In this document: one piece after another, positions 36,230 to 59,823 of the stretch
How positions within the stretch are numbered: the stretch's first letter is position 1
Layout of the letters: every line of letters begins with the position of its first letter
NCBI RefSeq assembly: GCF_003018115.1
Contig: NZ_CP027457.1
Reading direction: 5' to 3' (one strand)
Length of the DNA: 64,000 nt
Source: Escherichia coli
GTDB taxonomy: Bacteria; Pseudomonadota; Gammaproteobacteria; Enterobacterales; Enterobacteriaceae
The notes under the pieces: model-generated
Seen by the model: the letters and a program-made list of their open reading frames with translations, nothing else
Databases searched by the model: none
Told to the model about the DNA's origin: nothing
Position numbers and translations under genes: made by a program

Positions 36230-36348
36230 GTTTTATTCTATTGATAGCAGAGCGGTCACGCAAGAGAAACAGGAGGGGCATGAGGTGTTTGTATCATGTT
36301 TTCAGTTGGTTAACGCAATGTAATCAGGCATTTCCCCTGGCAGACTGT

Positions 36349-37221
36349 TCAGAAGAAAATCCAGTTCCATACCGCGCGGGCAACAGAGACCACCGAGTCA
36401 CGGACGGCACGCAGAACCGTGCGTGCAACAGAGGCAATACAGACGCTCTCCGCCGTGTCAAATATCCGGTCCACCGCACCGGTAAACTGTTCACGGGCCT
36501 GAGACCGGACAGATTCCGTGCGCAGCTCGTCCTGCAGGCGGGTCATCAGGGGGCTGGCGGCATGGTCGGGAAGCGCTGTCATGAGCGCACTGACCAGCGT
36601 ATCCAGTTCCCAGCCGGTGCGGGCCGATACGGCAACAACCGGATGTACGGGCCGGAACAGACGGAATACCGCCTCCGTTTTTTCGCGAATGTTCTGTGCC
36701 TGTGCGGGAGAAGGCTGAATGCCGGCCATATCCCATTCATGGCAGGGCTCCGTTTTGTCGGCCTGCGTCACCACAAACAGCACCTGCTGATGCCCCCGGT
36801 GCAGAATGTGTCGCCAGAAATACTCATCCACAGACAGGGCCCGGTCATCGGCTTTAATCAGCCACAGTACCAGGTCCAGTTCAGACAGAATGTTACGGTA
36901 CAGGGCTTCATACTCTGCATCCCTGTCACGGCTCTCGCCCACCCCGGGCAGGTCAGTGATAACCATGCTGTGACCGTGACCACTCAGACGGAAGCGCTGC
37001 ACTTCCCGGGTGCCGGCGTGAACATCACTGACCGGGGTGACCTCCCCCTGAAACAGTGCATTACAGAGTGAGGATTTACCGGCCCCGCTTTTCCCCATAA
37101 TGCCAATCACGGGTTCGTGACTGGTGAGTTTGCGCAGATGTTCCAGGATGTGACGGGAAAGTGAGTAAGGCAGGGAAGAAAGTGGTTTTTCAATTGCCTC
37201 AATGGCATCAGACGGATTCAT
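36349..37221 (-). CDS. YeeP/YfjP-type GTPase
   Basis: MNPSDAIEAIEKPLSSL start at 37221 gives 290 aa; P-loop GIMGKSGAGKSS and DLPG motif. Confidence 0.85.
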   Translation of the reverse strand: MNPSDAIEAIEKPLSSLPYSLSRHILEHLRKLTSHEPVIGIMGKSGAGKSSLCNALFQGEVTPVSDVHAGTREVQRFRLSGHGHSMVITDLPGVGESRDRDAEYEALYRNILSELDLVLWLIKADDRALSVDEYFWRHILHRGHQQVLFVVTQADKTEPCHEWDMAGIQPSPAQAQNIREKTEAVFRLFRPVHPVVAVSARTGWELDTLVSALMTALPDHAASPLMTRLQDELRTESVRSQAREQFTGAVDRIFDTAESVCIASVARTVLRAVRDSVVSVARAVWNWIFF

Positions 37222-37384
37222 ACATGTATTCCCGGTGAAAAAAGACAAAACCCCGCGCACCGGAAAGATGGCGGGGGATTCACGGAGATAATATCTGTCT
37301 GAAATTATTTGAAATGCAGGTATATGCAGCTAATTTGTATCAGCTTATTGGTACAGTACTAAACCTCATCTGACAGTCCGCTCT

Positions 37385-37399
37385 GTGCCAGGAGCGGAC
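37385..37399 (+). repeat. left copy of 15-nt direct repeat gtgccaggagcggac
   Basis: Identical 15-mer at 38896-38910; this copy forms the 3' arm of hairpin gtccgctc-tgtgccag-gagcggac (37376-37399). Confidence 0.6.
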
Positions 37400-37502
37400 A
37401 TTCCGATATTGAAAAGTAAATTGTCTTGCTGTATTTTTTCAGTCATAAAAATGAATAAGGATTCTCAGATGAGTGAGATATTTGAACTATTCAGTTCTAC
37501 TG

Positions 37503-38230: not shown

Positions 38231-38267
38231 ATACTCAAATCTCCCACATTGCAGGAGATTTGAGTAT
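38231..38267. promoter_or_regulatory. perfect 14-bp inverted repeat between divergent starts
   Basis: atactcaaatctcc (38231-38244) / ggagatttgagtat (38254-38267) with 9-nt loop; the right arm contains the ggag SD and the first two nt of the recombinase ATG. Confidence 0.6.
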
Positions 38268-38868
38268 GAACACGTCACCGTGGAACAAAGACCGTATCAT
38301 CGCCCAAAAAAGACCACTTCAGATATCTCATATCTGGGAGATCCGAATCCGGCTTGAACTGGAAGGTAAAACGCGCGATTTAGCTCTGTTCAATATGGCC
38401 CAGGACAGTAAGCTTCGAGGCTGTGATCTGGTCAAACTCAAAGTATCGAATGTGGCATATGGTAGCTCGGTTTCAAGCAGAGAAACGGTGTTGCAACAAA
38501 AAACCGGTAACCTTGTGCAATTCGAGATAACCAAAGGGACAAGAGAAGCTGTTGCTGCATTGATAAAGCTTGGCAATTTGCACAGTAAAGACTTCTTGTT
38601 TCGGTCTCGGGTCGGAACTAATCGGCACATATCAACCCAGCAATACAGCCGAATTTTTCATGGGTGGGTAGAAAAGCTTGGTCTCGAAGCTTCGCTGTAC
38701 AGCACACAATCCATGAGAAGAACAAAACCTTACCTAATCTACAAGAAAACCAAGAATCTCCGGATCATCCAACTTCTGTTGGGTCATAAGAAACTGGAAA
38801 GCACGATCCGTTATCTGGGCATTGAAGTCGATGATGCGTTAGAGACCTCTGAATCGATTGAAGTCTAA
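38266..38868 (+). CDS. short (200-aa) tyrosine recombinase, FimB/FimE-sized
   Basis: ATG 38266 preceded by aggag; catalytic signature ...SKLRGCDL..., ...QSMRRTKP..., LLGHKKLESTIRYLG (R...R...H...Y); no long N-terminal arm-binding domain. Confidence 0.8.
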   Translation: MNTSPWNKDRIIAQKRPLQISHIWEIRIRLELEGKTRDLALFNMAQDSKLRGCDLVKLKVSNVAYGSSVSSRETVLQQKTGNLVQFEITKGTREAVAALIKLGNLHSKDFLFRSRVGTNRHISTQQYSRIFHGWVEKLGLEASLYSTQSMRRTKPYLIYKKTKNLRIIQLLLGHKKLESTIRYLGIEVDDALETSESIEV

Positions 38869-39026: not shown

Positions 39027-40388
39027 ATGACTCGGAGTGAAATAAACGTCTGGGATGAGAGAAGAGGTACCAATAGTCATCGAGTGGAGGAGATTCGATC
39101 TGAAGCTCAGCACGACCTTTCTCGATTGATTCACTCGTCTGCTTTCAGACGATTACAATCCAAAACACAGGTTCTTGGTCTGGGTGAAAGTGATTTCTAC
39201 CGCACACGACTGACTCATTCTATGGAAGTCGCACAAATCGGTTCAGGTCTTCTTGCTAAGTTGAAAATAAAATATAAAGGTAAAGAGCAAGAGCAATTTT
39301 TACCAGATAACGCTCTTATGCAGGCAGTATGTCTCGCACATGATATTGGACATCCTCCATTTGGTCACGGCGGTGAGGTAGCTCTTAACTACTGTATGCA
39401 GGATTACGGTGGTTTTGAAGGAAACGGTCAGACGCTTCGCATTCTCTCGAAACTAGATAAGTATACCTTAGAACACGGACTCGATCCTACACGCAGACTT
39501 CTGCTAGGCATACTGAAATATCCGGTTAAATACTCGGAGCTAGTGGTTACAAAAGACAGAATCCCGGTCACTATCGGATCACCAAACTGGCTCTTTAAGT
39601 CATCTGATTTTAAACCTCCAAAATGCTATCTAGATTCAGAATGCGATGTTGTAAAATTTGCTCTCTCACCATTTACTGAACAGGATCGGAGGCTTTTTAC
39701 TTCCGTTGAAGATGGTCAAACTAAATCCGATCATAAAAAAGCTTCTTATAAAGCTCTCGATACAACTATAATGGATCTTGCCGATGAAATTTCGTATTCG
39801 CTGCACGATTTGGAGGATGCTATTTCTCTCGGAATGGTGACACGAGAAATGTGGATGGAGCATTTCAGTGAACATGAAACCCTATTTACTAACTGCCATG
39901 GAAAAATATTTTCCGAAACATGCCAATCTGTAGCGGATAGCCTTTTTGGTGAAAGTTACAAGAGAAAAGAGTGCATCGGGATGCTGGTTCACCTGATGAT
40001 TACAAGCGTTGAGCTTATTACAAAGAATCCAGCATTCGAATGTGGCATGCTCAAATATAATGCGGTCCTTCCGGAAGCGGTCGAAGCACTACGGTTGAAA
40101 ATTTTCAAACTGGTCAAAAATAAAGTAATTAAGCATGAAAATGTACAGCAGCTTGAATTCAAGGGACAAAAGTTGATTGTTGAGCTCTTCGGTGTGTTGG
40201 CGAACGATCCGTGTCGGTTTCTACCTGCCTCAACGAGGGAAATTTACGAGCGGCAGACTAGCTTAGACAAGAAGGCTGGTATGCGAGTCATTTGCGACTA
40301 TGTTTCAGGGATGACTGATGACTATGCAACAAAGCTTTATGAGAAGATCCTTATTCCACGCAAAGGGTCTATTTTTGACCATCTCTAA
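39027..40388 (+). CDS. dGTPase-family HD-domain dNTP triphosphohydrolase
   Basis: ORF 39000..40388; ATG 39027 follows aggaa; motifs IHSSAFRRLQSKTQV, YRTRLTHSMEVAQIG, HDIGHPPFGHGGE, DLADEISYSLHDLEDA. Confidence 0.85.
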   Translation: MTRSEINVWDERRGTNSHRVEEIRSEAQHDLSRLIHSSAFRRLQSKTQVLGLGESDFYRTRLTHSMEVAQIGSGLLAKLKIKYKGKEQEQFLPDNALMQAVCLAHDIGHPPFGHGGEVALNYCMQDYGGFEGNGQTLRILSKLDKYTLEHGLDPTRRLLLGILKYPVKYSELVVTKDRIPVTIGSPNWLFKSSDFKPPKCYLDSECDVVKFALSPFTEQDRRLFTSVEDGQTKSDHKKASYKALDTTIMDLADEISYSLHDLEDAISLGMVTREMWMEHFSEHETLFTNCHGKIFSETCQSVADSLFGESYKRKECIGMLVHLMITSVELITKNPAFECGMLKYNAVLPEAVEALRLKIFKLVKNKVIKHENVQQLEFKGQKLIVELFGVLANDPCRFLPASTREIYERQTSLDKKAGMRVICDYVSGMTDDYATKLYEKILIPRKGSIFDHL

Positions 40389-41372
40389 CACGGTAAGAAT
40401 GATACTCTGAGTTCAATTGACCTATAAACATTAACCAAGGCATCTACCAGGGGGGATATCAAATCCCCCCATTCTGAATTTGTTCATGCAGAATCGGTGA
40501 ACGTTCTCATCTGAGCGTTAAACGCCAATAATCATTGATCTACACTGATCATTAATACACCTTAATACCATTAGCGTCTTACTCCGTTATGAGAACAAAC
40601 GCGAACTTCCGCTGTTCGCTCAAAGCAGACCATTCGCTCAGTTAACGCATCAGTGTCGTGCTAGAAGTAGAAGTGGTTAACAACAATGTGAGTTAATCAA
40701 CGGAGAGCAGGTCAACTCTAACCTGTATCAAAAAACAAATGTGTCATAAAGATGCCGCATGCCTTAATTTGAGTATAATTGAGACGGAAGTAGACGGTTT
40801 ATGACTAGATATTGTTGATATATAGCTATTTGAAGAGTTGTAGCGCAAGCGCATAGCCCAAACTAATAACGCTACGCCCCTTATCAAAGAGCGGCAACGA
40901 TGCACAGCTCGCACGAGACAATATTCGCACAAGAAATCAGGTTCGGAAATAACCAGCTCTGGCATGGCGGGGAGAGTATCAATGGTCAGGCTTTCGGTAA
41001 GATGCGGCGGGATGAGGTCGGCGTGGGTTACAGCAGTACAAGGTCGCCCACAGAGGGTAAGCCACAGCGTGGAATCCTCGGTTTCTATCAGGGATTCGGC
41101 GAAGCGGGCGCAGTTGTCGACCAAGACGATGAAATCCATTGTGGCATTATAAGGGAACGAACAATAGATCGAGTAAATCGCAGTCAGGGACAAGGATTGT
41201 AGTCATAGAGAAGTCTCCTGTAACGGTTTTCAGGAGGCTAATCCCGACGCCTGATTTCGCAGGCGCGGAAAGAGAGGATACTGCGACCATTAATCCGCCA
41301 CAAGTCATTTACGTACATAAATCGCGCAGTCAGATCCGACTCCCACTGTAGTTCTTGAACTTGATACCACAT

Positions 41373-41389
41373 TTAGCTAATTTAGCTAA
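41373..41389. promoter_or_regulatory. tandem palindromes TTAGCTAA-t-TTAGCTAA (putative operator)
   Basis: Two self-complementary octamers at 41373-41380 and 41382-41389, 26 nt upstream of the small HTH ORF that heads the R-M operon. Confidence 0.5.
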
Positions 41390-41414
41390 ATTATCCAGTA
41401 TACCAGTGGTTGCC

Positions 41415-41660
41415 ATGAATATGAATGAAGATGAGATTTATCGCCATATCCGGCAGGCACTTTCCAGTGCGCCGCGTAACCAGTACACCGTCGAGCTACA
41501 CCTGCAAATGATTAAATATGCCGACGAACTGGAACACATTACGGCAAAAGCCTTTTGCGAAGGCACCGGTCTGAGCCAGAGCCTCGGTACCGAATTCAGC
41601 AAAATGCGTAACTTAACCCGTCGGTTGAAGGCCGCCGGTCTGAATACCGATCTGCTGTAA
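41415..41660 (+). CDS. small putative HTH protein preceding hsdM
   Basis: ORF 41355..41660; ATG 41415 gives 81 aa MNMNEDEIYRHIRQALSS...ITAKAFCEGTGLSQSLGTEFSKMRNLTRRLKAAG (HTH-like by eye). Confidence 0.6.
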   Translation: MNMNEDEIYRHIRQALSSAPRNQYTVELHLQMIKYADELEHITAKAFCEGTGLSQSLGTEFSKMRNLTRRLKAAGLNTDLL

Positions 41661-41699
41661 CCGACTTACGGCAGATTATCGCGCAAAACGAGATATTTA

Positions 41700-44138
41700 A
41701 TGGCTATCAAAAAAACCGAACTCTATTCTTCCCTGTGGGCAAGCTGCGACGAACTGCGTGGCGGGATGGACGCCAGCCAGTACAAAGACTATGTACTGAC
41801 CCTGCTGTTTATGAAGTACGTTTCCGATAAGTATAAAGGCGATCCTTACGGGATGATCGTGATACCCAAAGGAGCCAGCTTTGACGATATGGTTGCGCTG
41901 AAAAATGACAAAGAGATCGGCGACAAAATCAACAAAATCATCCACAAGCTGGCGGAAGAGAACGGCCTGAAGGGCGTCATCGACGAAGCCGACTTTAACG
42001 ACGAAGATAAGCTCGGCAAAGGCAAGGAAATGATTGACCGCCTGAGCAAGCTTGTCGGTATCTTTGAAGGGTTAGATCTCTCCAGCAACCGGGCCGAAGG
42101 CGACGATCTGTTGGGCGATGCCTATGAATATCTGATGCGTCACTTCGCAACCGAATCCGGCAAGAGTAAAGGGCAGTTTTACACTCCGGCGGAGGTGTCA
42201 CGTATTCTGGCGAAGGTGATTGGTATTACTCCCGATACGCCGCGAGATGCAACGGTTTATGACCCAACCTGTGGCTCTGGTTCGCTGCTGTTGAAAGTGA
42301 ATGATGAAGCCCGGCGCGGACTATCGATTTTCGGCCAGGAGATGGATAACGCTACCAGTGCACTGGCGCGGATGAACATGATTCTGCATAACAATGCCAC
42401 CGCGAAAATCTGGCAGGGTAATACGCTGAGCGATCCGCAGTGGAAAGAGGCGAACGGCAAACTGAAAGCCTTCGATTTTGCCGTGGCGAACCCGCCTTTT
42501 TCCAATAAAAACTGGACCAACGGGTTGACGCCGAAAAAAGATCCGTTTGAACGCTTCGGCTGGGGCATTCCGCCGGAGAAAAACGGCGATTATGCTTTTT
42601 TGCTGCATATCATTAAAAGCCTGAAAAGTACCGGCAAAGGCGCGGTGATCCTGCCCCATGGCGTACTGTTTCGCGGTAACGCCGAGGCAAATATCCGTGA
42701 AAATCTAATCAAGCAGGGCTATATCAAAGGCGTTATTGGTTTGCCGGCCAACCTGTTTTACGGCACCGGCATCCCGGCGTGCATTATTGTGATTGATAAA
42801 GAGCACGCCCACAGCCGCAAAGGCATTTTTATGATCGACGCCAGTCGGGGCTTTATCAAAGATGGCAACAAGAACCGCCTGCGTAGCCGAGATATTCACC
42901 GCATTGTGGACGTGTTCAACCATCAGCGAACGGTGCCGGGCTACAGCCGGATGGTGCCCTCCAGCGAGATCGCCGGAAATGATTACAACCTGAATATTCC
43001 TCGCTATATCGAGAGCGGCGAGCCGGAAGATTTGCACGATCTGACCGCGCACTTACAGGGCGGTATTCCAGCACGCGATGTGGATGCTTTGCAGGATTAC
43101 TGGCGGGTATTCCCTGCCCTGCGCAACGTGCTGTTTGCTGACGACCGTTCCGGTTACTGTCGGGCGCAGGTGAACGCGCAGCAGGTGAAACCAACCATTC
43201 TGGCACATCAGGAGTTTAAGGATTTTGCCACCCGCAGCCTGCTACCGTTTAAAGCGTGGGTGAAAGAGGCAAGTCTGGAAGAGATTCGCAAAGGTGATAA
43301 ACCCAAAGCGCTGATCCACGATATCAGCGAGATGTTGCTTGTGCAGTACGCCAACAGTGAGTTGCTGAACAAGTACAGCGTGTACCAGATCCTGATGGAT
43401 TACTGGGCTGATGTCATGCAGGACGATGTGTATGTGATTATGCAGGATGGCTGGCAAGCCGCCGCGCAAATCCGCGAGCTTCAACCGGTGAAAGGCAAAG
43501 ATGGCAAAAACATCTGGAAAGAAACGCACGATTTCGAGTTTACCAAACAGCGCTACAAGGCCGATGTGCTACCCCGTTCACTAGTGGAAATTCGCTGCTT
43601 CCCGGAACTGCTGGATACGTTGAACCGCGCGCAGGAGCGCAGTGAAGAAGCCAGTCGTCAGCTAGCGGAACTCATCGAGGAGCAGGCAGGGGAAGAGGAT
43701 CTGCTGGCTGAGGCGAAGAACGATAAAGATAAGGTGACGCAAAAGCTGGTGAATGCCCGTCTGGCACAGTTGAAGAAAACCCCTGCCGACCCAGATGAGC
43801 TGGCAGTGCTGAACCGCTGTCTGGCGCTGATTAAGGCCGAGGCCAGTGCGAAAAAAGCGCTGAAAGCCGCACAGGAAGCGTTGGATCGAGCGGTATTTAA
43901 ACATTATCCCACGCTGGATGAAACAGCGATTAAAACGCTGGTAGTGCAGGATAAGTGGCTGGCAACGTTGCAGGCAGGAATCAAGGCGGAGATTGAGCGT
44001 ATTACCCAGCAACTGGCGTCGCGCGTAAAGGAGCTGGAAGAGCGTTATGCTGAACCGTTGCCAGCGCTTGAAGCCTCCGTTGAGGCGTTGAGCGAGAAAG
44101 TGGCCGGGCATTTGCGGGCGATGGGGCTGGAGTGGTGA
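41700..44138 (+). CDS. hsdM: type I R-M methyltransferase subunit (long form, 812 aa)
   Basis: AdoMet motif VYDPTCGSGSLLL and catalytic motif FAVANPPFS; about 330-aa charged, helical-looking C-terminal extension. Confidence 0.92.
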   Translation: MAIKKTELYSSLWASCDELRGGMDASQYKDYVLTLLFMKYVSDKYKGDPYGMIVIPKGASFDDMVALKNDKEIGDKINKIIHKLAEENGLKGVIDEADFNDEDKLGKGKEMIDRLSKLVGIFEGLDLSSNRAEGDDLLGDAYEYLMRHFATESGKSKGQFYTPAEVSRILAKVIGITPDTPRDATVYDPTCGSGSLLLKVNDEARRGLSIFGQEMDNATSALARMNMILHNNATAKIWQGNTLSDPQWKEANGKLKAFDFAVANPPFSNKNWTNGLTPKKDPFERFGWGIPPEKNGDYAFLLHIIKSLKSTGKGAVILPHGVLFRGNAEANIRENLIKQGYIKGVIGLPANLFYGTGIPACIIVIDKEHAHSRKGIFMIDASRGFIKDGNKNRLRSRDIHRIVDVFNHQRTVPGYSRMVPSSEIAGNDYNLNIPRYIESGEPEDLHDLTAHLQGGIPARDVDALQDYWRVFPALRNVLFADDRSGYCRAQVNAQQVKPTILAHQEFKDFATRSLLPFKAWVKEASLEEIRKGDKPKALIHDISEMLLVQYANSELLNKYSVYQILMDYWADVMQDDVYVIMQDGWQAAAQIRELQPVKGKDGKNIWKETHDFEFTKQRYKADVLPRSLVEIRCFPELLDTLNRAQERSEEASRQLAELIEEQAGEEDLLAEAKNDKDKVTQKLVNARLAQLKKTPADPDELAVLNRCLALIKAEASAKKALKAAQEALDRAVFKHYPTLDETAIKTLVVQDKWLATLQAGIKAEIERITQQLASRVKELEERYAEPLPALEASVEALSEKVAGHLRAMGLEW

Positions 44139-45445
44139 TGGTGGATTTAATGGTGAATGAGCAACGATCAGGTACGGCGGGGAAAGATGTGCCTGCGGGG
44201 TATAAGCTGACTGAGGTGGGGGTGATTCCTGAGGATTGGGTAGTAATCTCTATTGATGACTGTACAACCAAAGTTGGTAGTGGAAAAACACCAACTGGTG
44301 GAGCATCTGTTTATATTGATAGCGGACGCCCTTTTGTCCGTAGCCAAAATGTTGATTGGGGAAGATTAGATCTCGCCGATGTCGTACATATTACAGATGA
44401 AACCCATAACACATTCTCTGGTTCTGAAATTCAGCAAGATGATGTTTTACTCAACATAACGGGAGCATCTATCGGCCGATGCGCTAAAGCTGATTTTAGG
44501 GTTATAGGTGGTAATGTTAACCAACATGTTTGCATCATCAGAACAGAGGCAAAAAAACTCTCCCCATCCTTACTGGTTGAATTAATCAATTCAAATTATG
44601 GACAAAACCAGATTGATAGTTATCAAGCCGGAGGAAACAGAGAAGGACTGAATTTTTCTCAAGTTAAAAATCTTAAGTTTGCTATTACACCAAACTCCCT
44701 TGAACAAACGGAAATTGTCAGAACATTAAATGATATTAATGCATTCACTCTCGCTCTGGAAAACTTAATTGCTAAAAAACAGGCCATAAAAGCCGCTGCT
44801 ATGCAACAACTACTCACCGGTAAAACCCGTTTGCCGCAGTTTGCGTTGCGCAAAGATGGATCTGCTAAGAGATATAAAAAGAGCAAGTTGGGGGAGACTC
44901 CAGAAGATTGGGCAGTTAATAATATTGGAGATTTATTCTCCATTACCGCAGGAGGAGATTTAAGACAGTCTGAATTCTCTAATATTCAATCTGAAAAACA
45001 TCTTTACCCTATTTATTCCAATGCAATTAGTCATTATGGTTTATATGGCTATTGCCAGAGTTATGATTATGTTGGTGACTATCTAACAATCACTGCGAGG
45101 GGAGGAATCGGCCATGCCGTGGCAAGAAAAGGAAGATTCTGTGCAATTGGACGATTATTAGTTCTTAGTCCAAAAGGAGATTCAAACGTAAAATTTTATG
45201 AAGGGTATATAAACCAATACTTATCATTTGCAAATGAGAGCACTGGAGTCCCTCAACTTACAGCTCCTCAAGTTGCAAAATATCCGGTTGTTTCCCCATG
45301 CATTGAAGAACAAACCGCCATCGCCACCATCCTCTCCGATATGGACAAGGAAATTCAGACCCTGCAACAACGTCTGGACAAAACCCGTCAGCTTAAACAG
45401 GGGATGATGCAGGAGCTGTTAACCGGGAAAACACGCTTAATATAA
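44135..45445 (+). CDS. hsdS: type I R-M specificity subunit
   Basis: Start overlaps hsdM stop; two AT-rich variable TRDs separated by conserved [26 protein letters not shown] and ending [17 protein letters not shown]. Confidence 0.92.
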
Positions 45446-45456
45446 AAGGGAAACCT

Positions 45457-46107
45457 ATGACTACAGCGCCAGCCTCAATCCGCAAAAAGCCCTGATCTGG
45501 CGTATCGTCCATCGGGACAATATCCCGTGGATTCTGGACAATGGTCTGCACTGCGGCAACAGCCCGGTGCAGGCTGCTAACTGGATCAATATCGGCAACC
45601 CGGAGCTTATCGGCAAGCACGCCGGACATCCGGTACCTGTCGGGACGGGCGGGACACTGCGTGACTATGTGCCATTTTATTTTACCCCCTTCTCGCCAAT
45701 GCTGATGAACATCCACAGCGGACGTGGCGGCATTAAGCAACGCCCCAATGAAGAGATCGTTATTCTGGTCAGCAGCCTGCGGCACGTGGCAGCACACGAC
45801 GTGCCCTTCGTGTTTACCGACAGCCATGCTTACTATAACTGGACCAACTACTACACCAGTCTGGATAGTCTGGACCAGATCGACTGGCCCATTTTGCAGG
45901 CACGGGACTTTCGCCGCGATCCAGACGATCCGGCTAAATTTGAACGCTATCAGGCAGAGGCGCTAATCTGGCAACACTGCCCGATCTCGCTGCTGGATGG
46001 GATAATTTGTTACAGCGAAGAGGTCAGGTTACAATTAGAACAATGGTTGTTTCAGCGTAATCTAACAATGTCCGTTCACACACGGGCTGGATTGGTACTT
46101 CTCATGA
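45457..46107 (+). pseudogene. darT: DarT ssDNA ADP-ribosyltransferase toxin, out of frame at both ends
   Basis: ATG 45457 (frame 1) stops after 12 codons; body in frame 0 ([19 protein letters not shown]...[16 protein letters not shown]...[11 protein letters not shown]...RYQAEALIW...) aligns with recalled Thermus DarT; native-looking end ..DWYFS* (TGA 46105-46107) is back in frame 1. Confidence 0.8.
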
Positions 46108-47171
46108 TCACATATACACAAGGCAATTTACTGGACGCACCGGTGGAAGCTCTGGTGAATACGGTTAATACCGTCGGTGTCATGGGGAAAGGCATCGCGT
46201 TGATGTTTAAAGAGCGCTTCCACGAAAATATGAAAGCCTATGCCCTCGCCTGCAAACAAAAGCAGGTGATCACCGGCAAAATGTTCATTACCGAAACCGG
46301 GGAACTGATGGGACCGCGCTGGATTGTTAATTTTCCGACCAAACAGCACTGGCGCGCTGACTCCCGCATGGGGTGGATTGAAGATGGCTTACAAGACTTA
46401 CGTCGATTTTTGATTGAAGAGAACGTGCAATCCATCGCCATTCCACCGCTGGGCGCAGGCAACGGTGACTTGAACTGGCCGGACGTTCGGGCGCAGATTG
46501 AATCTGCCCTTGGCGACCTTCAGGACGTTGATATCCTGATTTACCAACCAACTGAAAAATACCAGAACGTTGCCAAAAGCACTGGCGTAAAAAAGCTCAC
46601 TCCCGCCAGAGCCGCCATCGCTGAACTGGTGCGTCGCTACTGGGTATTGGGGATGGAGTGCAGCCTACTGGAAATCCAGAAACTGGCCTGGCTGTTACAA
46701 CGCGCCCTTAAGCAGCATCAACAGGACGATATCCTCAAACTGCGGTTTGAAGCTCACTATTATGGCCCCTATGCGCCCAATCTGAACCATCTGCTTAATG
46801 CGCTGGACGGCACCTATCTTAAAGCCGAGAAACGCATCCCGGACAGCCAACCGCTGGATGTGATCTGGTTTAACGATCAGAAAAAAGAACACGTTAATGC
46901 GTATCTGAACAGCGAAGCCAGAGAGTGGCTACCGGCGCTGGAGCAGGTCAGCCAGTTAATTGACGGCTTTGAATCGCCGTTTGGTCTGGAGCTGCTGGCA
47001 ACCGTAGACTGGTTGCTGAGCCGTGGCGAATGTCAACCAACACTGGATTCCGTTAAGGAAGGGCTGCACCAGTGGCCTGCGGGCGAACACTGGGCCAGCC
47101 GTAAGTTGAGGCTGTTTGATAATAATAATCTGCAATTTGCCATTAACCGCGTAATGGAGTTCCATTGCTGA
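46104..47171 (+). CDS. darG: DarG macrodomain antitoxin
   Basis: 355 aa [39 protein letters not shown]...[12 protein letters not shown]...[14 protein letters not shown], closely parallel to recalled Thermus DarG; ATG overlaps the darT TGA (ATGA). Confidence 0.9.
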
Positions 47172-47189
47172 GGGTTTAAGGAGCGCCTT

Positions 47190-50100
47190 TTGAGTACCGT
47201 GGGCCAGCGCGAACGCGCCACACAGCAGCGTCTGATTCAGTTTTTTGTTGAAGATTTAGGTTACCGCCATCTGAGTCACCGCACCGGGTACACCGGGAAC
47301 AGCAACATCGACACTAATATACTGAGCGCGTGGCTAAAACGGCGCGGCGTTAATGATACGTTGATCACCCGGGCGTTGCGGCAACTGGATTCCGCCGCCG
47401 CTCTGGGCGAAGGCAAAAAACTCTATTACGCCAATAAAGAGGTCTATCGCCTGCTACGTTACGGCGTGAAAGACAAAGAAGGCGCAGGCGAGCAGAACCA
47501 AACCGTGTGGCTGATTGACTGGGCCAACCCACAAGCCAATGATTTCGCCATCGCCGATGAGGTGACGGTCAAAGGCGAGTACTGCAAGCGCCCGGATCTG
47601 GTGCTGTACGTTAACGGCATTGCGCTGGGCGTGATTGAACTTAAGCGTTCGTCAGTGCACGTCAGCGAAGGCATCCGGCAGAATCTCGATAATCAAAAGA
47701 AAACCTTTATCCGCGATTTCTTCACCACTATGCAGTTAGTGATGGCGGGCAACGATACGCAGGGCCTGCGCTACGGCACCATCGAAACCCCGGAAAAATA
47801 CTATCTGGAGTGGAAAGAAGATAATCCAGGCGACTATACACATAAACTCGACTTTCATTTAAGTCGTCTGTGTAGCAAATCCAGGCTGTTGGATATCGTC
47901 CATAATTACATTGCCTTTGATGTCGGAGTGAAAAAACTCTGCCGCCATAATCAGTTCTTCGGCGTCGAGGCGGCTAAACAACATATTGCCCGTCGTGAAG
48001 GCGGTATTATCTGGCACACACAGGGATCGGGTAAAAGCCTGACGATGGTCTGGCTGGCGAAGTGGATCCGTGAAAATGTGCCAAACTCCCGCGTGTTGAT
48101 TGTGACTGACCGCACCGAACTGGATGAACAGATCGAAAGCGTGTTTATGGGCGTGAATGAAGATATTTATCGCACCTCCAGCGGCAACGATCTTATCGCA
48201 ACGCTCAATCATCCTAACCCGTGGCTCATTTGCTCGCTGGTGCATAAATTTGGTCGTCGCAGCGAAGCTGAAGACAATGCGGCTACCGACGCCTTTATCA
48301 CCGAATTACAGCAGTCCCTGACGAAAACATTCCGCGCCAAAGGCGATCTGTTTGTTTTTGTGGACGAGTGCCACCGCACACAATCCGGCAAGCTGCATAA
48401 CGCCATGACTGCCATTCTGCCGGACGCCCTGTTTATCGGTTTTACCGGCACACCGCTGATGAAGAAAGATAAGAAGAAGTCGGTTGAGGTGTTCGGCCCT
48501 TATATCCATACCTATAAATTTGATGAAGCGGTGGCCGACGGTGTGGTGCTGGATCTGCGCTACGAGGCACGCGATATTGACCAGTATCTGACATCAGAGA
48601 AAAAGGTCGATGACTGGTTTGAAGCCAAGACTCGCGGTTTGTCGAATTTAGCCAGGACCCAGCTTAAGCAAAAGTGGGGATCAATGCAGAAGCTGCTCTC
48701 CAGCAAGTCGAGGCTGGAGCAGATCGTTAACGACATTTTGCTGGATATGGATACCCGTCCACGCCTGATGGACGGGCGCGGCAACGCCATGCTGGTATGC
48801 AGCAGTATCTATCAAGCCTGCAAGGTTTACGAGATGTTCAGCCAGACCGAGCTGGCAGGAAAAGTAGCGATTGTGACCAGCTATCGCCCCGATGCCGCCA
48901 GCATCAAAGGCGAAGAAACGGGCGAAGGGTTAACGGAGAAACTCTCTAAACACGCCACCTATCGTAAAATGTTGGCTGACTATTTTGAACAAAGTGAAGA
49001 GAAGGCCGCCGCACGCATTACCGAGTTCGAGCGGGAAGTGAAACAGCGTTTTATTGAAGAGCCGGGGCAAATGCGCCTGCTTATCGTGGTGGATAAGCTG
49101 CTGACTGGCTTTGACGCGCCGTCCGCCACCTATCTCTACATTGATAAAACCATGACCGACCATACGCTGTTTCAGGCGATTTGTCGGGTGAACCGGCTGG
49201 ACGGTGAGGATAAAGAGTATGGCTATATTATCGATTATAAAGATCTGTTCCGTTCGCTGGATAAAGCGATTACCGATTACACCACGGGCGCGTTTGATGA
49301 TTACGATCGGGACGATGTGGCCGGGTTGCTGAAAGACAGGCTGGAGCAGGCGCAACTGGATCTCGACAGCGCGCTGGAGATGGTTCGCAGCTTATGTGAA
49401 CCCGTCAAAACCCCGCGCAGCCTGCAGGACTATCAGCACTATTTTTGCGGTGAATCAGGAGAGAATCAGACTTCGTTAAACGAAAAAGAGGCGCTGCGCC
49501 TGACATTTTACCAGTGCGTCGCCCGTCTGCTACGCGCTTATGCCAGCATCGCCAATGAAATGCCGGAAGCAGGCTACACTGCCGAAGAGGTAGAGAGCAT
49601 TCGCGCCGAAGTCGCTGAATTCGAAAAACTGCGCTATGAGATTAAGCTGACCAGCGGCGATCTTCTGGATATGAAGCGCTTTGAACCCGCTATGCGTCAT
49701 TTACTGGATATGTATGTTCGCGCCGATGATAGCGAAGTGCTGATGGATTTTGAAGAGTTAAGTCTGATTGAACTGATTGTCGAGAAAGGCTTGGCGGCGA
49801 CCGTCGCCCTGCCGGATGATATCCGTAATAATCAGGATGCGATGGCGGAAACCATCGAAAACAACGTGCGCAAAACCATCGTGGATGAAAACCCGGTTAA
49901 CCCAAAATACTATGGACGCATGTCGCAGCTGCTGGATGAACTGATTACCCTTCGCCGACAAAATGCGCTCAATTATCAGCAGTATCTGGAACGTATCCGC
50001 GATTTGTGTAAACAAGTCATCCGCCCGGAGCAAACCGCCGGAGCGTGCTACCCTGCCACCATGGATACACAAGCAAAGCGCGCCTTCTATGATAACTTCG

Positions 50101-50285
50101 GCCACGACGAGGTACTGGCGACCCGCATAGATACGACGATTCGCTATACCAAAAGGGCAGAGTGGATTGGCGATCGTTTTAAAGAACGGGAAATTGCCAA
50201 CGCATTACGTGAAGAGACCGCCAGCTATAATATTGATATTGATGAGGTGATAGCGCTTGCCCGTCAGCAGAAGGAATATCACTGA
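47190..50285 (+). CDS. hsdR: type I R-M restriction/translocase subunit
   Basis: 1031 aa; nuclease PD...ELK (RPDLVLYVNGIALGVIELKRS), Walker A TQGSGKSLTM, DECH box VFVDECHRTQSG; TTG 47190 follows aaggag. Confidence 0.92.
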   Translation: MSTVGQRERATQQRLIQFFVEDLGYRHLSHRTGYTGNSNIDTNILSAWLKRRGVNDTLITRALRQLDSAAALGEGKKLYYANKEVYRLLRYGVKDKEGAGEQNQTVWLIDWANPQANDFAIADEVTVKGEYCKRPDLVLYVNGIALGVIELKRSSVHVSEGIRQNLDNQKKTFIRDFFTTMQLVMAGNDTQGLRYGTIETPEKYYLEWKEDNPGDYTHKLDFHLSRLCSKSRLLDIVHNYIAFDVGVKKLCRHNQFFGVEAAKQHIARREGGIIWHTQGSGKSLTMVWLAKWIRENVPNSRVLIVTDRTELDEQIESVFMGVNEDIYRTSSGNDLIATLNHPNPWLICSLVHKFGRRSEAEDNAATDAFITELQQSLTKTFRAKGDLFVFVDECHRTQSGKLHNAMTAILPDALFIGFTGTPLMKKDKKKSVEVFGPYIHTYKFDEAVADGVVLDLRYEARDIDQYLTSEKKVDDWFEAKTRGLSNLARTQLKQKWGSMQKLLSSKSRLEQIVNDILLDMDTRPRLMDGRGNAMLVCSSIYQACKVYEMFSQTELAGKVAIVTSYRPDAASIKGEETGEGLTEKLSKHATYRKMLADYFEQSEEKAAARITEFEREVKQRFIEEPGQMRLLIVVDKLLTGFDAPSATYLYIDKTMTDHTLFQAICRVNRLDGEDKEYGYIIDYKDLFRSLDKAITDYTTGAFDDYDRDDVAGLLKDRLEQAQLDLDSALEMVRSLCEPVKTPRSLQDYQHYFCGESGENQTSLNEKEALRLTFYQCVARLLRAYASIANEMPEAGYTAEEVESIRAEVAEFEKLRYEIKLTSGDLLDMKRFEPAMRHLLDMYVRADDSEVLMDFEELSLIELIVEKGLAATVALPDDIRNNQDAMAETIENNVRKTIVDENPVNPKYYGRMSQLLDELITLRRQNALNYQQYLERIRDLCKQVIRPEQTAGACYPATMDTQAKRAFYDNFGHDEVLATRIDTTIRYTKRAEWIGDRFKEREIANALREETASYNIDIDEVIALARQQKEYH

Positions 50286-51001
50286 TGCCAATCATGCAAA
50301 TAGGCTCGTTACACTTGCTGGTCAACCGTAAGGCGATTAAGAATCTGCATATCAGCGTGCTGCCGCCTGATGGCAAAGTCCGCGTTTCAGCGCCGGAACA
50401 TATGACGGAGACGGCGATTCGTATGGCGGTTGCTTCACGCTTTCGCTGGATCAGAAAACAGCAGCAGGATTTCGCCAGACAGCCTCGTCAATCAGAGAGG
50501 GAAATGGTCAGCGGAGAGTGCCACTATCTTTGGGGCCGAAGATATCGCCTACTTGTGATTGAGCGTCACGGGCGTCACGAAGTAAAAGTTGCGGGAAATA
50601 ATAAGCTCCAGCTTTATGTTCAACCGGGAACCCGTGATGAAAATAAGGCATTGGCGTTAAGTGAATTTTATCGACATGAACTAAAACAGCAGGTGGCTAA
50701 GCTTCTACCTGAATGGCAGGACCGAATCGGTGTTCCCCTAACATTCTGGGGCATCAAAAAGATGAAAACCTTTTGGGGCACCTGTAACACTACAACAAAA
50801 CGAATCTGGCTCAATCTGGAGCTAATTAAGAAGCCGCCGGAGTGTCTGGAGTATATTCTGGTGCATGAACTGGTTCATCTTCTGGAACGTCACCATAATG
50901 CTCGCTTCCGGTTGCATATGGATCGGTTTATTCCTGACTGGCGTGAGCGTCGGGATTTGTTAAATAATATGCCGTTAGCGTTTGAGGCATGGGAGTATTG
51001 A
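50285..51001 (+). CDS. DUF45/YgjP-like zinc metallopeptidase
   Basis: 238 aa; HELVH at 50864-50878; ATG overlaps the hsdR stop (TGATG). Confidence 0.8.
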   Translation: MPIMQIGSLHLLVNRKAIKNLHISVLPPDGKVRVSAPEHMTETAIRMAVASRFRWIRKQQQDFARQPRQSEREMVSGECHYLWGRRYRLLVIERHGRHEVKVAGNNKLQLYVQPGTRDENKALALSEFYRHELKQQVAKLLPEWQDRIGVPLTFWGIKKMKTFWGTCNTTTKRIWLNLELIKKPPECLEYILVHELVHLLERHHNARFRLHMDRFIPDWRERRDLLNNMPLAFEAWEY

Positions 51002-51100
51002 TTGAGCCTGTAACTGTTTTTTGTCCATAAATTAACCTTCATTTGATGCTGGATTGAACATATCAAAATCAGACAATTACACAAATCTATGTACAGGCTC

Positions 51101-51168
51101 AACTCCTGCCATGGAACGTAGTACTCACCAATAAGTAAGCATCAATACGGCGCTCCGTTAACGCTTAC
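51101..51168 (+). mobile_element. 68-bp right-end remnant of an IS66-family element
   Basis: aactcctgccatggaacgtagtactcaccaataa...cgctccgttaacgcttac is a near copy of 53832-53899 (right end of the intact IS), in the same orientation. Confidence 0.8.
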
Positions 51169-51452
51169 TAGCATGGTTATCTCCTTAAAAAATTGAGGCG
51201 ACAACTATGCTGACACAGGGGGTTACTCACCGATCTCCTTCACGGTAATACGCAGTTCTTCAGAACCCGCCTCCGATACCAGCCTGGCGGTCGCCCCGGC
51301 GCAACAGAATAAATCAACCATCGTCAGACTGCGATCATTCGTAATGTTCCGGGGACCTCATCTTCAGTAAGCGTAAACTGACCGCCGTATGTAGCCATTA
51401 AGCCAGTATTGGTAACGTAGGTGCCCACCTTTTCAACTAGTGGACACCTGTT

Positions 51453-51878
51453 ATGGAACAGAAAATATTATCCTCAGAACCCCGCAGATCATTTTCAAAT
51501 GAGTTTAAACTTCAAATGGTTAAACTGGCTTCACAACCAGGAGCCTCTGTTGCCCGTATTGCCCGGGAACACGATATCAATGATAACCTCCTGTTCAAAT
51601 GGCTCAGGCTCTGGCAGAACGAAGGGCGTATATCGCGGCGTCTTCCGGTAACAATCTCTTCTGGCGCTGGCGTTGAATTATTACCTGTTGAGATAACGCC
51701 TGATGAGCAGAAAGAGCCTATGGCGGCTCTTACTCCGCTTTTATCCACTCCTTCACAAAGCACAGTCAGTGCCAGTTCCTGTAAAGTTGAGTTCCGCCAC
51801 GGTAACATGACGCTGGAAAATCCTTCACCAGAGCTGCTCACGGTGTTGATCCGTGAACTGACCGGGAGGGGACGATGA
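51453..51878 (+). CDS. IS66 accessory protein TnpA (orf1)
   Basis: 141-aa ORF with HTH-like N-terminus; 4-nt overlap with orf2. Confidence 0.85.
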   Translation: MEQKILSSEPRRSFSNEFKLQMVKLASQPGASVARIAREHDINDNLLFKWLRLWQNEGRISRRLPVTISSGAGVELLPVEITPDEQKEPMAALTPLLSTPSQSTVSASSCKVEFRHGNMTLENPSPELLTVLIRELTGRGR

Positions 51879-52225
51879 TCTCGCTCCCATCAGGTACCCG
51901 TATCTGGCTCGTTGCCGGCGTTACCGATATGCGTAAATCCTTCAACGGACTGGGAGAACAGGTACAACATGTGCTGAATGATAATCCCTTCTCCGGTCAC
52001 CTGTTTATCTTCCGTGGCCGACGGGGTGACACCGTCAAAATTCTTTGGGCTGATGCTGATGGTCTGTGCCTGTTCACCAAACGCCTGGAGGAAGGCCAGT
52101 TTATCTGGCCTGCGGTACGTGACGGCAAGGTATCCATTACCCGCTCGCAACTGGCAATGCTCCTCGATAAGCTGGACTGGCGTCAGCCAAAAACATCCAG
52201 CCGTAACTCACTGACAATGTTGTAA
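51875..52225 (+). CDS. IS66 Orf2 (TnpB)
   Basis: 116 aa MISLPSGTRIWLVAGVTDMRKSFNGLGEQVQHVL..., a typical IS66 Orf2. Confidence 0.88.
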   Translation: MISLPSGTRIWLVAGVTDMRKSFNGLGEQVQHVLNDNPFSGHLFIFRGRRGDTVKILWADADGLCLFTKRLEEGQFIWPAVRDGKVSITRSQLAMLLDKLDWRQPKTSSRNSLTML

Positions 52226-52255
52226 AAAACTCCTGACCGCATTATAAAAACGGTC

Positions 52256-53869
52256 ATGAGTCAGAAATACCTCATTCGCATCGCAGAGCTGGAAAGATTG
52301 CTCTCTGAGCAGGCTGAAGCCCTCCGTCAGAAAGACCAGCAACTGAGTCTGGTTGAAGAGACGGAAGCCTTCCTGCGCTCTGCACTGACACGTGCCGAAG
52401 AAAAGATCGAAGAAGATGAACGGGAAATAGAACATCTGCGGGCTCAGATAGAAAAACTGCGCCGGATGCTGTTCGGTACCCGTTCTGAAAAACTGCGTCG
52501 TGAAGTTGAACTGGCTGAGGCTCTGCTGAAACAACGTGAACAGGACAGCGATCGTTACAGTGGGCGGGAAGACGATCCTCAGGTTCCCCGCCAGTTGCGA
52601 CAGTCGCGCCATCGTCGTCCGTTACCGGCACACCTTCCCCGTGAAATACACCGCCTGGAGCCAGAAGAAAGCTGTTGCCCGGAGTGTGGCGGTGAACTGG
52701 ATTATCTGGGGGAAGTCAGCGCTGAACAGCTGGAACTGGTGAGCAGTGCCCTGAAAGTGATCCGCACAGAACGGGTAAAAAAAGCCTGTACAAAATGTGA
52801 CTGTATTGTTGAAGCACCGGCGCCGTCCCGCCCGATAGAGCGTGGTATCGCGGGCCCCGGATTACTTGCCCGCGTGTTAACGGGAAAATACTGCGAACAT
52901 CTGCCACTGTATCGTCAGAGTGAAATCTTTGCCCGCCAGGGTGTCGAACTGAGCCGGGCCTTACTCTCCAACTGGGTTGACGCGTGCTGCCAGTTAATGA
53001 CACCGGTGAATGATACCCTGTACCGTTATGTAATGAACACCCGCAAGGTTCACACTGATGACACACCGGTAAAGGTACTGGCACCGGGTCAGAAAAAGGC
53101 GAAAACAGGGCGTATCTGGACGTATGTCCGGGATGATCGCAATGTGGGTTCGTCATCTCCTCCAGCGGTCTGGTTCGCGTACTCGCCGAACCGGCAGGGG
53201 AAACACCCGGAGCAACACCTCCGCCCCTTCCGGGGTATCCTGCAGGCGGATGCGTTCACAGGTTACGACAGGTTGTTCAGTGCAGAACGTGAAGGTGGTG
53301 CACTGACAGAAGTTGCGTGCTGGGCCCATGCCCGGCGAAAAATCCACGATGTATACATCAGCAGCAAAAGTGCGACGGCAGAAGAAGCCCTGAAGCGAAT
53401 CAGTGAACTGTACGCCATCGAGGATGAAATACGGGGATTACCGGAGTCAGAGCGTCTTGCCGTCAGGCAGCAGCGAAGCAAAGTGTTACTGACGTCGCTG
53501 CATGAATGGATGGTGGAGAAGAATGGTACGCTGTCGAAAAAATCCAGACTGGGCGAAGCGTTCAGCTATGTACTGAATCAGTGGGATGCCCTCTGTTATT
53601 ACAGTGATGACGGTCTGGCGGAGGCGGATAATAATGCTGCGGAAAGAGCGCTTCGTGCAGTCTGTCTCGGAAAGAAAAACTTTATGTTCTTTGGCAGCGA
53701 TCACGGCGGCGAGCGTGGAGCACTGTTGTACGGGCTGATCGGCACCTGCCGTCTGAACGGTATCGATCCGGAAGCGTATCTGCGCCATATCCTGAGCGTA
53801 CTGCCGGAATGGCCTTCCAACCGAGTTGATGAACTCCTGCCATGGAACGTAGTACTCACCAATAAATAA
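52256..53869 (+). CDS. IS66-family DDE transposase (orf3)
   Basis: 537 aa with N-terminal coiled coil, CPECG zinc motif and DDE core. Confidence 0.9.
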   Translation: MSQKYLIRIAELERLLSEQAEALRQKDQQLSLVEETEAFLRSALTRAEEKIEEDEREIEHLRAQIEKLRRMLFGTRSEKLRREVELAEALLKQREQDSDRYSGREDDPQVPRQLRQSRHRRPLPAHLPREIHRLEPEESCCPECGGELDYLGEVSAEQLELVSSALKVIRTERVKKACTKCDCIVEAPAPSRPIERGIAGPGLLARVLTGKYCEHLPLYRQSEIFARQGVELSRALLSNWVDACCQLMTPVNDTLYRYVMNTRKVHTDDTPVKVLAPGQKKAKTGRIWTYVRDDRNVGSSSPPAVWFAYSPNRQGKHPEQHLRPFRGILQADAFTGYDRLFSAEREGGALTEVACWAHARRKIHDVYISSKSATAEEALKRISELYAIEDEIRGLPESERLAVRQQRSKVLLTSLHEWMVEKNGTLSKKSRLGEAFSYVLNQWDALCYYSDDGLAEADNNAAERALRAVCLGKKNFMFFGSDHGGERGALLYGLIGTCRLNGIDPEAYLRHILSVLPEWPSNRVDELLPWNVVLTNK

Positions 53870-53909
53870 GCGTCAATACGGTGCTCCGTTGACGCTTACA
53901 GCTTTCCCA

Positions 53910-54284
53910 CTATTTCTTGATTCCTAAACGGAACATATCAGTTGGGAATAAAGGTTGTATTATCACTTCATCATTAAAAATGAATAATTTGGGCGATAAA
54001 GCTGTTACGTCATAGATATTTTCAGCGATTAATCTTAGATTTGACCTAAAAACTGGAATACTTGCATCATCTGCAAAGACAAACATGTCATCGTTTTTTA
54101 CAGAGTTTGCACACAATAGCTCATCAAAACTCTCATAATCAGAATGCCAGATCTCTGACCAAGTAACACTTCCTTTCGCGAGAGGGTACTTATTTAAAAT
54201 GCCCAGAGCCTCCTGCTGAGCCAGCCCCTCTACTATATTAAAATCAGCACTCAGTGCTTCCCGACACTCATCAAATAAAGTCAT
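53910..54284 (-). CDS. CdiI-type immunity protein, orphan module 4
   Basis: 124-aa AT-rich ORF 5 nt downstream of the orphan toxin stop; its stop is 10 nt from the IS66 end. Confidence 0.7.
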   Translation of the reverse strand: MTLFDECREALSADFNIVEGLAQQEALGILNKYPLAKGSVTWSEIWHSDYESFDELLCANSVKNDDMFVFADDASIPVFRSNLRLIAENIYDVTALSPKLFIFNDEVIIQPLFPTDMFRLGIKK

Positions 54285-54289
54285 TTGCT

Positions 54290-55657
54290 CTACCTGTTTA
54301 GCTGTTTCAATATTGTTTCAAAAGACTTTTCATTGCCTTCAAAAGGTATGACTTGCTTCACCGCTTTTCCAGGGCCTTTACCCTGCGAGTAATCCCATAT
54401 ATTGATGTGTGTGCCTTTTTCAGGATCATAATCAACACGCCAACCAACTTTTCCGTCGCTGGATTGCCGCCCTATGACTTTCCCATTACCAGCGCTGACT
54501 TCCAAACGTCCGATAACTGGCTTAGAGTCCGCTCCTAAATTACCTACAAGATCCAATGCCTTGTTTCGAGCAGTTTCCCAGTTTTTCTCTGGCTTGAGGA
54601 TTTGTTCAATTTTAGGCTGGGAATTCCCTTTAACCTTACTAATTCCCCCAAATGCTGACGCCGCAGCGCTCGCGACTATTCCCGCCTGAACTTCATCCAA
54701 ACCGTATTCTTCTTGGAGTGCTTCCGAGACTTTGTTGGTCGCGACAACCCCTTCAGCCTGCATTTGCTGCGCAAAAGTCGCCGTCAGATCGTAGACCATT
54801 TTGATCGGGATATCTTCACCCAGAGCACGATCTATTGCCTGCTTCACCGCCAGACTGTCAGTCAGTACATCACCGTATTTCTGCTGGCAGGTTGCCGGGC
54901 TGGCTGCACAGTCACTGATCAGTTGCTTTTGCTGTGCCGTACTCAACTCTTCGTACTTTTTGATAATACCGCCGCAGTCACCGCCTTTCGCCTGACAGGA
55001 CTTCATTTCAGCGGACCAAGCATCTATCTGCTTACTGCTCAGATAGTTATTCTCAACAGCATTCTTCCCGCTTTGTGCTCCCACTGCTGCTGATGCGGTG
55101 CTGTTTCCGGTAAGACCTCCGGCCAGCCCTGCTGACACGGTTGCCAGCGTACTTATCGTTTGCTTCTGCTCTTCACTGAGGTCTGACTGTTTCACGCCCG
55201 GATACAGCATGCCGGCAATCGCTCTGACTGCCAGCTCTCCCGTTGCTGCGCCTGCTGCACCGGCAGCAACATTATTACCCTGCATTGCCGCCACTGCGCC
55301 GCCCAAAATGGCGTGAGCAATGGCGTTTACTGCCGGGTCTTTTTCTGTTGATTTCAGCAGGTGCGCCAGTTCCGGAGCCGAAGTTCCGGCCAGAGCACCC
55401 GCTAAATTACCCCCCGCCAGCCCCTGAAGCGCGGCCTGGATACCCCGCTGAATTTCACTGCCGGTACCATACTTCGCCATTTCATCCCTGTAAGCCTGCG
55501 TGTCACGCAGTTTTGCCAGATATGCCTGCCGCTGCTCTTCCGTCGCATCCGCCGGAACAGGCCCATATTTATCCTGCGCAGCCTTCAACGCATTCAGTTC
55601 CCCCTGCGTCCGCGCAATATCAGCCACCTGACTGCCTATGTCACTGATAAGCCCCAC
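54290..55657 (-). CDS. orphan cdiA-CT module 4 (pretoxin remnant + VENN + toxin domain)
   Basis: VENN encoded at 55046-55057 ([11 protein letters not shown]); about 200 aa upstream resembles the resident cdiA pre-VENN region; homology extends to about 55705 ([12 protein letters not shown]) beyond the first ATG. Confidence 0.8.
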
Positions 55658-55742
55658 TGTCTGCAGACGCTGCTGCTCTTTTTCCTTGTCAAAGATGGAA
55701 AAGCAAAAAAACCAGCCAACTGAACTAGCTGGTAGTTAAAGT

Positions 55743-59822: not shown

Positions 59823-59823
59823 T

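Follow-up and report, generated by a model that had tools for sequence, protein, structure and literature searches.

The 64,000-nucleotide stretch of Escherichia coli DNA analysed here (contig NZ_CP027457.1; referred to below as the window) carries an allele of the published RRDM island (RptR-RMS-DarTG2-M48), in which the genes for the toxin DarT and the antitoxin DarG lie between hsdS and hsdR of a type I restriction-modification (R-M) system. This allele, found in an island next to a tRNA-Ser gene, has very probably lost the toxin half of the module, and an R-M system, an orphan DarG and an M48-family peptidase are left. An earlier reading made from the letters alone (the sequence-only reading) had proposed a functional toxin-antitoxin module inside the R-M transcription unit. 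DNA coding for DarT and DarG is indeed present between hsdS and hsdR in one tightly packed, co-directional string of genes, but the functional module is absent here, as darT is a pseudogene.

The architecture itself was already known. An association of DarTG with type I R-M loci was noted in 2016 by Jankevicius et al. (PMC5179494), as the sequence-only reading had correctly stated. In 2025, Zhang et al. (Nucleic Acids Research) characterised a unit of seven open reading frames (ORFs) in E. coli O127:H6 E2348/69, an enteropathogenic E. coli (EPEC), named it 'RRDM' and found that it defends against phages (PMC12255303). The phage resistance was demonstrated with the EPEC allele alone, on a pBR322 clone (PMC12255303). 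DarT is an enzyme that attaches ADP-ribose to thymidines in single-stranded DNA; DarG reverses this modification and also sequesters DarT (PMC7003065). Statements made below on promoter and operator function, on phage defence and on the biochemistry of DarT and DarG are drawn from experiments with the EPEC allele.

Gene content and promoter of the RRDM allele

Gene identities were read from the sequence using Pfam, NCBIfam and PADLOC profile matches on the window ORFs. Between 41355 and 51001 every long ORF is on the plus strand. The first gene, rptR (41421-41660), encodes a 79-aa repressor of the HTH_73 family (PF24718, E 4.9e-29) that is annotated by the Prokaryotic Genome Annotation Pipeline (PGAP) as WP_024175231.1. 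It is followed by hsdM (41700-44138), encoding the 812-aa type I methyltransferase subunit (N6_Mtase, E 1e-103, and HsdM_N; TIGR00497, 282 bits against a cut-off of 242.75), and by hsdS (44138-45445), encoding the 435-aa specificity subunit with two stretches matched by Methylase_S (PADLOC Specificity_I, E 1.5e-103). The darT pseudogene occupies 45457-46107 (PF14487, E 5e-49; NF048013, 246 bits), and darG (46104-47171) is intact, encoding a 355-aa antitoxin with a macrodomain (Macro, E 9e-19) and a C-terminal DarT-binding domain (NF048014, 443 bits against a cut-off of 250; PADLOC DarG, E 3e-125). The last two genes are hsdR (47190-50285), for the 1031-aa restriction and translocase subunit with HSDR_N, SWI2_SNF2 and T1R_D3 domains (TIGR00348, 546 bits, above the cut-off), and a gene for an M48/YgjP-like (DUF45) metallopeptidase (50285-51001; PF01863, E 1.4e-61). 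The six ORFs other than darT are full length. All components of a type I R-M system are therefore represented, namely HsdM, an HsdS with two target-recognition domains, and an HsdR with a nuclease and a superfamily 2 motor. In DarG, residues at about 190-250, within the C-terminal region that binds DarT, also gave a weak match to the SocA/Panacea antitoxin domain (PF13274, E 4e-4), below the Pfam cut-off.

The junctions between these genes are short. A gap of 39 nt separates rptR from hsdM, the hsdM stop and the hsdS start overlap in TGATG, and the hsdS stop is followed after 11 nt by an ATG at 45457. An ATGA at 46104-46107 precedes darG, the 18-nt gap between darG and hsdR includes an AAGGAG Shine-Dalgarno sequence ahead of the TTG start of hsdR, and the stop of hsdR overlaps the start of the M48 gene (TGATG). 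The seven co-directional genes with gaps of no more than 39 nt that the sequence-only reading had described were thus confirmed by profile identity and by inspection of the junctions. Its helix-turn-helix ORF upstream of hsdM is likewise a gene, though the ATG assigned to it at 41415 lies two codons upstream of the annotated start at 41421.

As judged by annotation, the window matches E2348/69 gene for gene, with the same order, overlaps and spacings: rptR is first, hsdM, hsdS and hsdR are complete, the darT and darG sequences lie between hsdS and hsdR, and the M48 gene is last. Insertion sequence (IS) elements are found on the flanks of the island in both. The encoded proteins are also close to those of E2348/69 (RptR 97.5%, HsdM 97.8%, DarG 97.7%, HsdR 99.6% and M48 100% identical, the last being the same protein as WP_001122107.1 of E2348/69). 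HsdS is the exception, sharing only 40.8% identity with its E2348/69 counterpart despite the near-identical genes on either side. This divergence points to exchanged target-recognition domains and a different methylation and restriction motif.

In E2348/69, an active promoter with the -35 box TTGAAC and the -10 box AGCTAATTT lies within 159 bp upstream of rptR (PMC12255303). RptR, for which a crystal structure has been solved, represses this promoter via TAGCTA palindromes, two of which suffice, and hsdM is induced >15-fold upon infection (PMC12255303). In the window, the corresponding promoter and operator are found on the plus strand at 41355-41388, with TTGAAC at 41355-41360, a 14-nt spacer and AGCTAATTT at 41375-41383. 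The -35 box, the spacer and the functional 5' -10 box are conserved relative to E2348/69. Two copies of the TAGCTA motif described in PMC12255303 (41374-41379 and 41383-41388) overlap the -10 box, as compared with three in E2348/69, and the alignment shows that one 9-bp repeat unit is missing. The RptR of the window is identical at 77 of 79 residues to the crystallised EPEC RptR (PDB 9r2z).

Co-transcription of all seven genes is suggested by their spacing. The 11-nt and 18-nt gaps that flank darT and darG are too short for a terminator or a full promoter. A scan of 40300-51600 returned 16 promoter-like sites, against 13.0 +/- 4.1 in shuffled sequence, and 17 terminator-like sites, against 12.8 +/- 3.5; there is thus no excess of either in this region, a result that neither supports nor excludes internal signals. 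The best plus-strand promoter-like match near darG is a sigma-70-like sequence inside darT (46007-46035) that agrees at 9 of 12 positions.

Inactivation of darT

The sequence-only reading took the ORF that begins at ATG 45457 for an intact darT overlapping darG. Three-frame translation does not bear this out. ATG 45457 is in frame 1 (coordinate modulo 3), where a TGA at 45493-45495 ends the reading after 12 codons, while frame 0 is the one that encodes the DarT domain (Pfam positions 1-188 of 201). The DarT-domain frame is open from 45441 to about 46091, includes no ATG, GTG or TTG until GTG 45567, which corresponds to residue 41 of DarT, and runs stop-free into darG, giving a single mechanical ORF of 534 aa. 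The ATGA sequence ahead of darG is real, but its TGA belongs to the frame of the false ATG and does not end the DarT frame.

The intact reference darT of E2348/69 is 657 bp long and encodes 218 aa; an intact gene in the window would read CCTATGGCCTATGAC at its 5' end and GGATGG at its 3' end. Alignment with the E2348/69 gene, and with the majority E. coli allele, revealed two lesions in the window. The first is a 7-bp deletion (CCTATGG) at about 45451-45460, between CCTATG direct repeats, which takes away the true ATG of darT and leaves a second, out-of-frame ATG behind the same Shine-Dalgarno sequence. The second is a 1-bp insertion of T at 46092/46093 (GGATGG to GGATTGG), by which the C-terminus of DarT, RSGWYFS followed by a stop, becomes RAGLVLL and is continued by DarG in frame. 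As the two lesions amount to a net change of -6 nt, the false start shares its frame with the old stop, and the gene therefore looks intact.

The window sequence is 100% identical to that of E. coli 2014C-4135, in the PGAP annotation of which six of the seven genes are intact and darT is marked 'frameshifted'. When the 7 bp were restored and the T was removed in silico, a 218-aa DarT was obtained that differs from EPEC DarT by nine residue substitutions, with 16 synonymous codon differences, and retains RYQAEALIW, the context of the catalytic Glu (E170 in EPEC). Given the closeness of the repaired protein to EPEC DarT and the preserved context of E170, the inactivation of darT is recent. With respect to the DarTG2 systems of Thermus aquaticus, Mycobacterium tuberculosis and EPEC (Jankevicius 2016, Lawaree 2020), the window shares adjacent sequences for DarT (PF14487/NF048013, with the catalytic Glu) and, immediately downstream, DarG (NF048014), joined by ATGA. 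It differs in that an intact gene remains for the antitoxin only; the toxin ORF lacks a start codon and is frameshifted, and no translatable ORF for the DarT ADP-ribosyltransferase is present. The start-codon deletion and the 1-bp insertion also distinguish this allele from the RRDM island of E2348/69, in which all seven ORFs are intact.

The distribution of the lesions was determined in 5426 complete E. coli genomes, 248 of which carry the island. Both lesions were found in five of the 248 (2014C-4135, 1303, C311, CFIAFB20180511 and STEC2017-197). Because 1-bp indels can occur in long-read assemblies and the 3' lesion consists of one inserted T, an intact gene obscured by sequencing or assembly errors had to be considered. 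However, five complete genomes that are independent of one another, and differ in laboratory and host, share the same two lesions, no long homopolymer surrounds the inserted T, and a 7-bp deletion between direct repeats is typical of replication slippage and atypical of read errors. The genome of STEC2017-197 moreover has a further deletion of 226 bp inside darT. Sequencing error was rejected on the ground that the lesions recur in all five assemblies, and the chance that darT is really intact in the window is negligible. Loss of darT is hence the preferred reading, and the 226-bp deletion on top of both lesions indicates progressive decay.

In the majority E. coli allele, as shown by alignment and annotation, darT is intact and 657 bp long. 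A 1-bp length difference in most E. coli alleles was at one point suspected to be the 3' insertion, which would have meant widespread DarT-DarG fusions. This was rejected because the extra base sits in the spacer between hsdS and darT, and darT is intact in these alleles.

Three considerations weigh against a locus with one transcription unit, an active R-M system and no DarT. The promoter-like match at 46007-46035 could drive darG and hsdR separately from the genes before them. The R-M system is predicted to be active with this HsdS allele because its ORFs are intact. Finally, small amounts of a DarT'-DarG fusion could in theory arise from initiation at GTG 45567 or from a -1 ribosomal slip at the sequence C_AAA_AAG (45483-45489).

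A single-chain fusion of this kind, for example an attenuated or self-inhibited toxin, would be compatible with the DarT frame being open and continuous with darG over 534 aa, and the inserted T exchanges only the last four residues of DarT (WYFS to LVLL). A -1 slip at 45483-45489 would also re-enter the DarT frame just before the conserved domain. Against this, GTG 45567 is not preceded by a Shine-Dalgarno sequence, and a product starting there would be without the first 40 residues, including the IWRIVHRDN motif that opens the Pfam domain. The slippery-looking sequence is ancestral and also found in intact alleles, and nothing suggests selection for frameshifting. Furthermore, the sister genome STEC2017-197 has deleted 226 bp of the DarT frame, which is consistent with neutral decay. 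Production of a fusion is thus considered very unlikely, and a pseudogene without a DarT product is the preferred interpretation.

The sequence around the putative slip site was noted in its own right. The frame of the residual ATG reads CGC AAA AAG CCC TGA at 45483-45495, with C_AAA_AAG one codon ahead of the stop, and a -1 slip would enter the DarT frame at K-A-L-I-W and, with the 3' insertion, would yield a DarT-DarG fusion. The presence of C_AAA_AAG in darT is probably a coincidence, as the sequence is ancestral and occurs in intact alleles too.

In intact copies of the island, a single RptR-repressed promoter upstream of rptR drives at least rptR and hsdM and, to judge from the spacing, would drive the whole string of seven genes. 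HsdM2S and HsdR2M2S complexes methylate host DNA and cut unmodified incoming DNA, and DarT modifies thymidines in single-stranded DNA and thereby arrests replication, with DarG removing the modification and sequestering DarT. In the window, the 7-bp deletion removes the darT start, ribosomes initiating at the surviving ATG would terminate after 12 codons, and the 1-bp insertion joins what remains of the darT frame to darG. The locus would then consist of an RptR-controlled type I R-M system of new HsdS specificity, an orphan DarG and an M48 peptidase, without a DarT-based abortive-infection arm.

Related DarTG loci and the comparison with PrrC

Within E. coli, the hsdR allele and darTG travel as one island. 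A query with hsdR found no copy of this R-M system lacking darTG in the complete genomes, the same 248 carrying both. Over 45380-49190, comparison with the majority E. coli allele gave 99.8% identity for hsdR and 96.6-97% for the darT-darG segment; hence, the island is a mosaic of segments with different histories.

A scan of other species, using one genome per species, identified 30 loci with a DarT (57-87% identical) and a DarG. The full order hsdM-hsdS-(...)-darT-darG-hsdR-M48 was found in nine of these, seven of which also include rptR. As this order recurs in 248 E. coli genomes and in nine of the 30 loci, the rptR-hsdM-hsdS-darT-darG-hsdR-M48 arrangement is not a chance juxtaposition. 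In 19 of the 30 loci, phmmer detected no hsd genes within 8 kb, and for the two nearest neighbours on each side of these 19 no type I R-M family is among the 25 most frequent of 66 Pfam families.

In some relatives the gaps between hsd genes hold other defence genes. In a gammaproteobacterial metagenome-assembled genome (MAG; L022, 2002-7780), hsdS and darT are separated by two GmrSD-family genes, a DUF1810 gene and a NERD gene, and in a Francisella MAG (L028, 5014-6394) a MazF-like toxin gene and a YhcG/DUF1016 nuclease gene lie between hsdM and hsdS. This fits the site being a hotspot for defence genes, as proposed by Zhang et al. (PMC12255303).

A second, divergent DarT-family gene was observed directly upstream of darT in 13 of the 30 loci, on the same strand and separated from it by 0-5 nt. 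Its product has 191-248 aa, shares about 20% identity with DarT2, matches PF14487 with E down to 6e-28, and keeps the alignment columns of EPEC R57, H126, Y134 and A169-E170. The gene is at 7423-7998 in each of L010, L019, L011, L013 and L021, at 7424-8029 in L014, 7382-8029 in L017, 7376-8005 in L023, 7388-7999 in both L024 and L026, 3611-4204 in L027, 7252-7998 in L032 and 7381-7995 in L033. The resulting three-gene darT'-darT-darG units occur both in hsd operons and as stand-alone loci, and the E. coli island does not have the extra gene. No close relative was found in the PDB, and a limited literature search found no paper describing it.

The sequence-only reading had further compared the site with that of prrC. 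PrrC is encoded within the type IC EcoprrI locus, where it is silenced by the Hsd proteins and activated by Stp of phage T4 (PMC2610378, PMC12707154), and darTG does occupy the equivalent position (PMC12707154, PMC2610378). In both cases a type I R-M locus has the gene for an abortive-infection effector placed between hsdS and hsdR, where it conceptually forms a 'second line' behind restriction. The two effectors are, however, not homologous, PrrC being an anticodon nuclease of the ABC-ATPase type and DarT an ADP-ribosyltransferase. No PrrC-homologous effector (ABC-ATPase-like N-domain with anticodon nuclease) is present, the embedded genes matching only DarT, Macro and DarG models. The R-M families also differ, HsdM having 812 aa here and EcoprrI being of type IC. 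PrrC lacks a dedicated antitoxin and relies on the Hsd proteins for its silencing, in contrast to DarT, for which the dedicated DarG is sufficient alone. Moreover, the close relatives of this DarTG are mostly outside hsd loci, unlike an effector that is strictly R-M-linked; nine of the 30 are hsd-embedded.

The comparison raises the possibility of an intact DarTG in the R-M operon that the Hsd complex keeps latent and sets free once restriction is blocked, as for EcoprrI and PrrC. The shared position between hsdS and hsdR (PMC12707154), the tight packing and the conservation of the arrangement in nine other species are in line with this proposal, and the EPEC study neither separated the contributions of R-M and DarTG nor probed their interaction (PMC12255303). 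In the window, however, darT is a pseudogene, which leaves the R-M complex with no toxin to hold back. In BL21, a host with no cognate R-M system, DarG is enough to neutralise DarT and does so by two mechanisms (PMC7003065), and DarTG systems defend when brought into E. coli, according to Zhang et al. (PMC12255303). The 19 related loci without detected hsd genes, and the dedicated antitoxin that DarT has and PrrC lacks, likewise speak against it. Literature searches and term look-ups in PMC12255303 returned no PrrC-like gating, operon mapping or pseudogenes for this island. Latency of an intact DarTG under Hsd control is therefore highly improbable for this locus. More generally, the sufficiency of DarG in BL21, the absence of detected hsd genes near about two thirds of the related DarTG loci in other species, and the loss of darT here with hsdM, hsdS, hsdR, darG and M48 intact together weigh against an obligate, PrrC-like dependence of DarTG on the R-M system.

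A further form of the idea concerns the intact relatives, in which the Hsd complex and/or the co-translated M48 peptidase might modulate DarTG2, for example with release of DarT when an Ocr- or Stp-like protein blocks restriction. This is conceivable, though unlikely. If it were true, the island would work as a PrrC-style 'restriction plus guard' unit instead of a pair of independent systems under a shared promoter, and the loss of darT in the lineage of the window would be an escape from the cost of the guard.

Genomic surroundings and significance

The horizontally acquired island in which the allele is found has its edge at a tRNA-Ser (GGA) gene (22893-22980). Beyond this gene, 23000-37500 includes an IS110 element, RadC, a GTPase gene and CP4-type genes, among them a CbtA/YeeU toxin-antitoxin pair and Ag43. 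The CP4-type genes also include one for an antirestriction protein on the minus strand (about 27894-28379), so that an anti-restriction gene and a type I R-M system are housed in the same acquired island. Just upstream of the RRDM allele are a short tyrosine-recombinase gene (38266-38868) and a gene for an anti-phage dGTPase (39000-40388; NF041026, 560 bits; PADLOC dGTPase). The sister genome STEC2017-197 likewise has the dGTPase gene upstream of the island, unlike E2348/69, and with the R-M system it makes up a small defence cluster. Farther along the acquired island, downstream of the M48 gene, 51453-59200 includes IS66-family copies, three or four in number, of which one has a frameshifted transposase, and 59234-64000 carries orphan contact-dependent inhibition (CDI) modules with a VENN pre-toxin fragment, CDI immunity genes, and a colicin-D-domain toxin gene with an immunity gene.

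With the association of DarTG and type I R-M operons noted in 2016 and the island characterised in 2025, the architecture of the locus adds nothing new. What changes is the classification of the locus in this genome, which should be counted under type I R-M, with an orphan DarG, rather than under DarTG defence systems. Crosstalk between R-M and DarTG is a matter for an intact allele such as that of E2348/69. The window provides a natural experiment in which the toxin has been lost and the R-M genes, the antitoxin and the peptidase have stayed intact, which argues that the R-M arm of the island does not need DarT.

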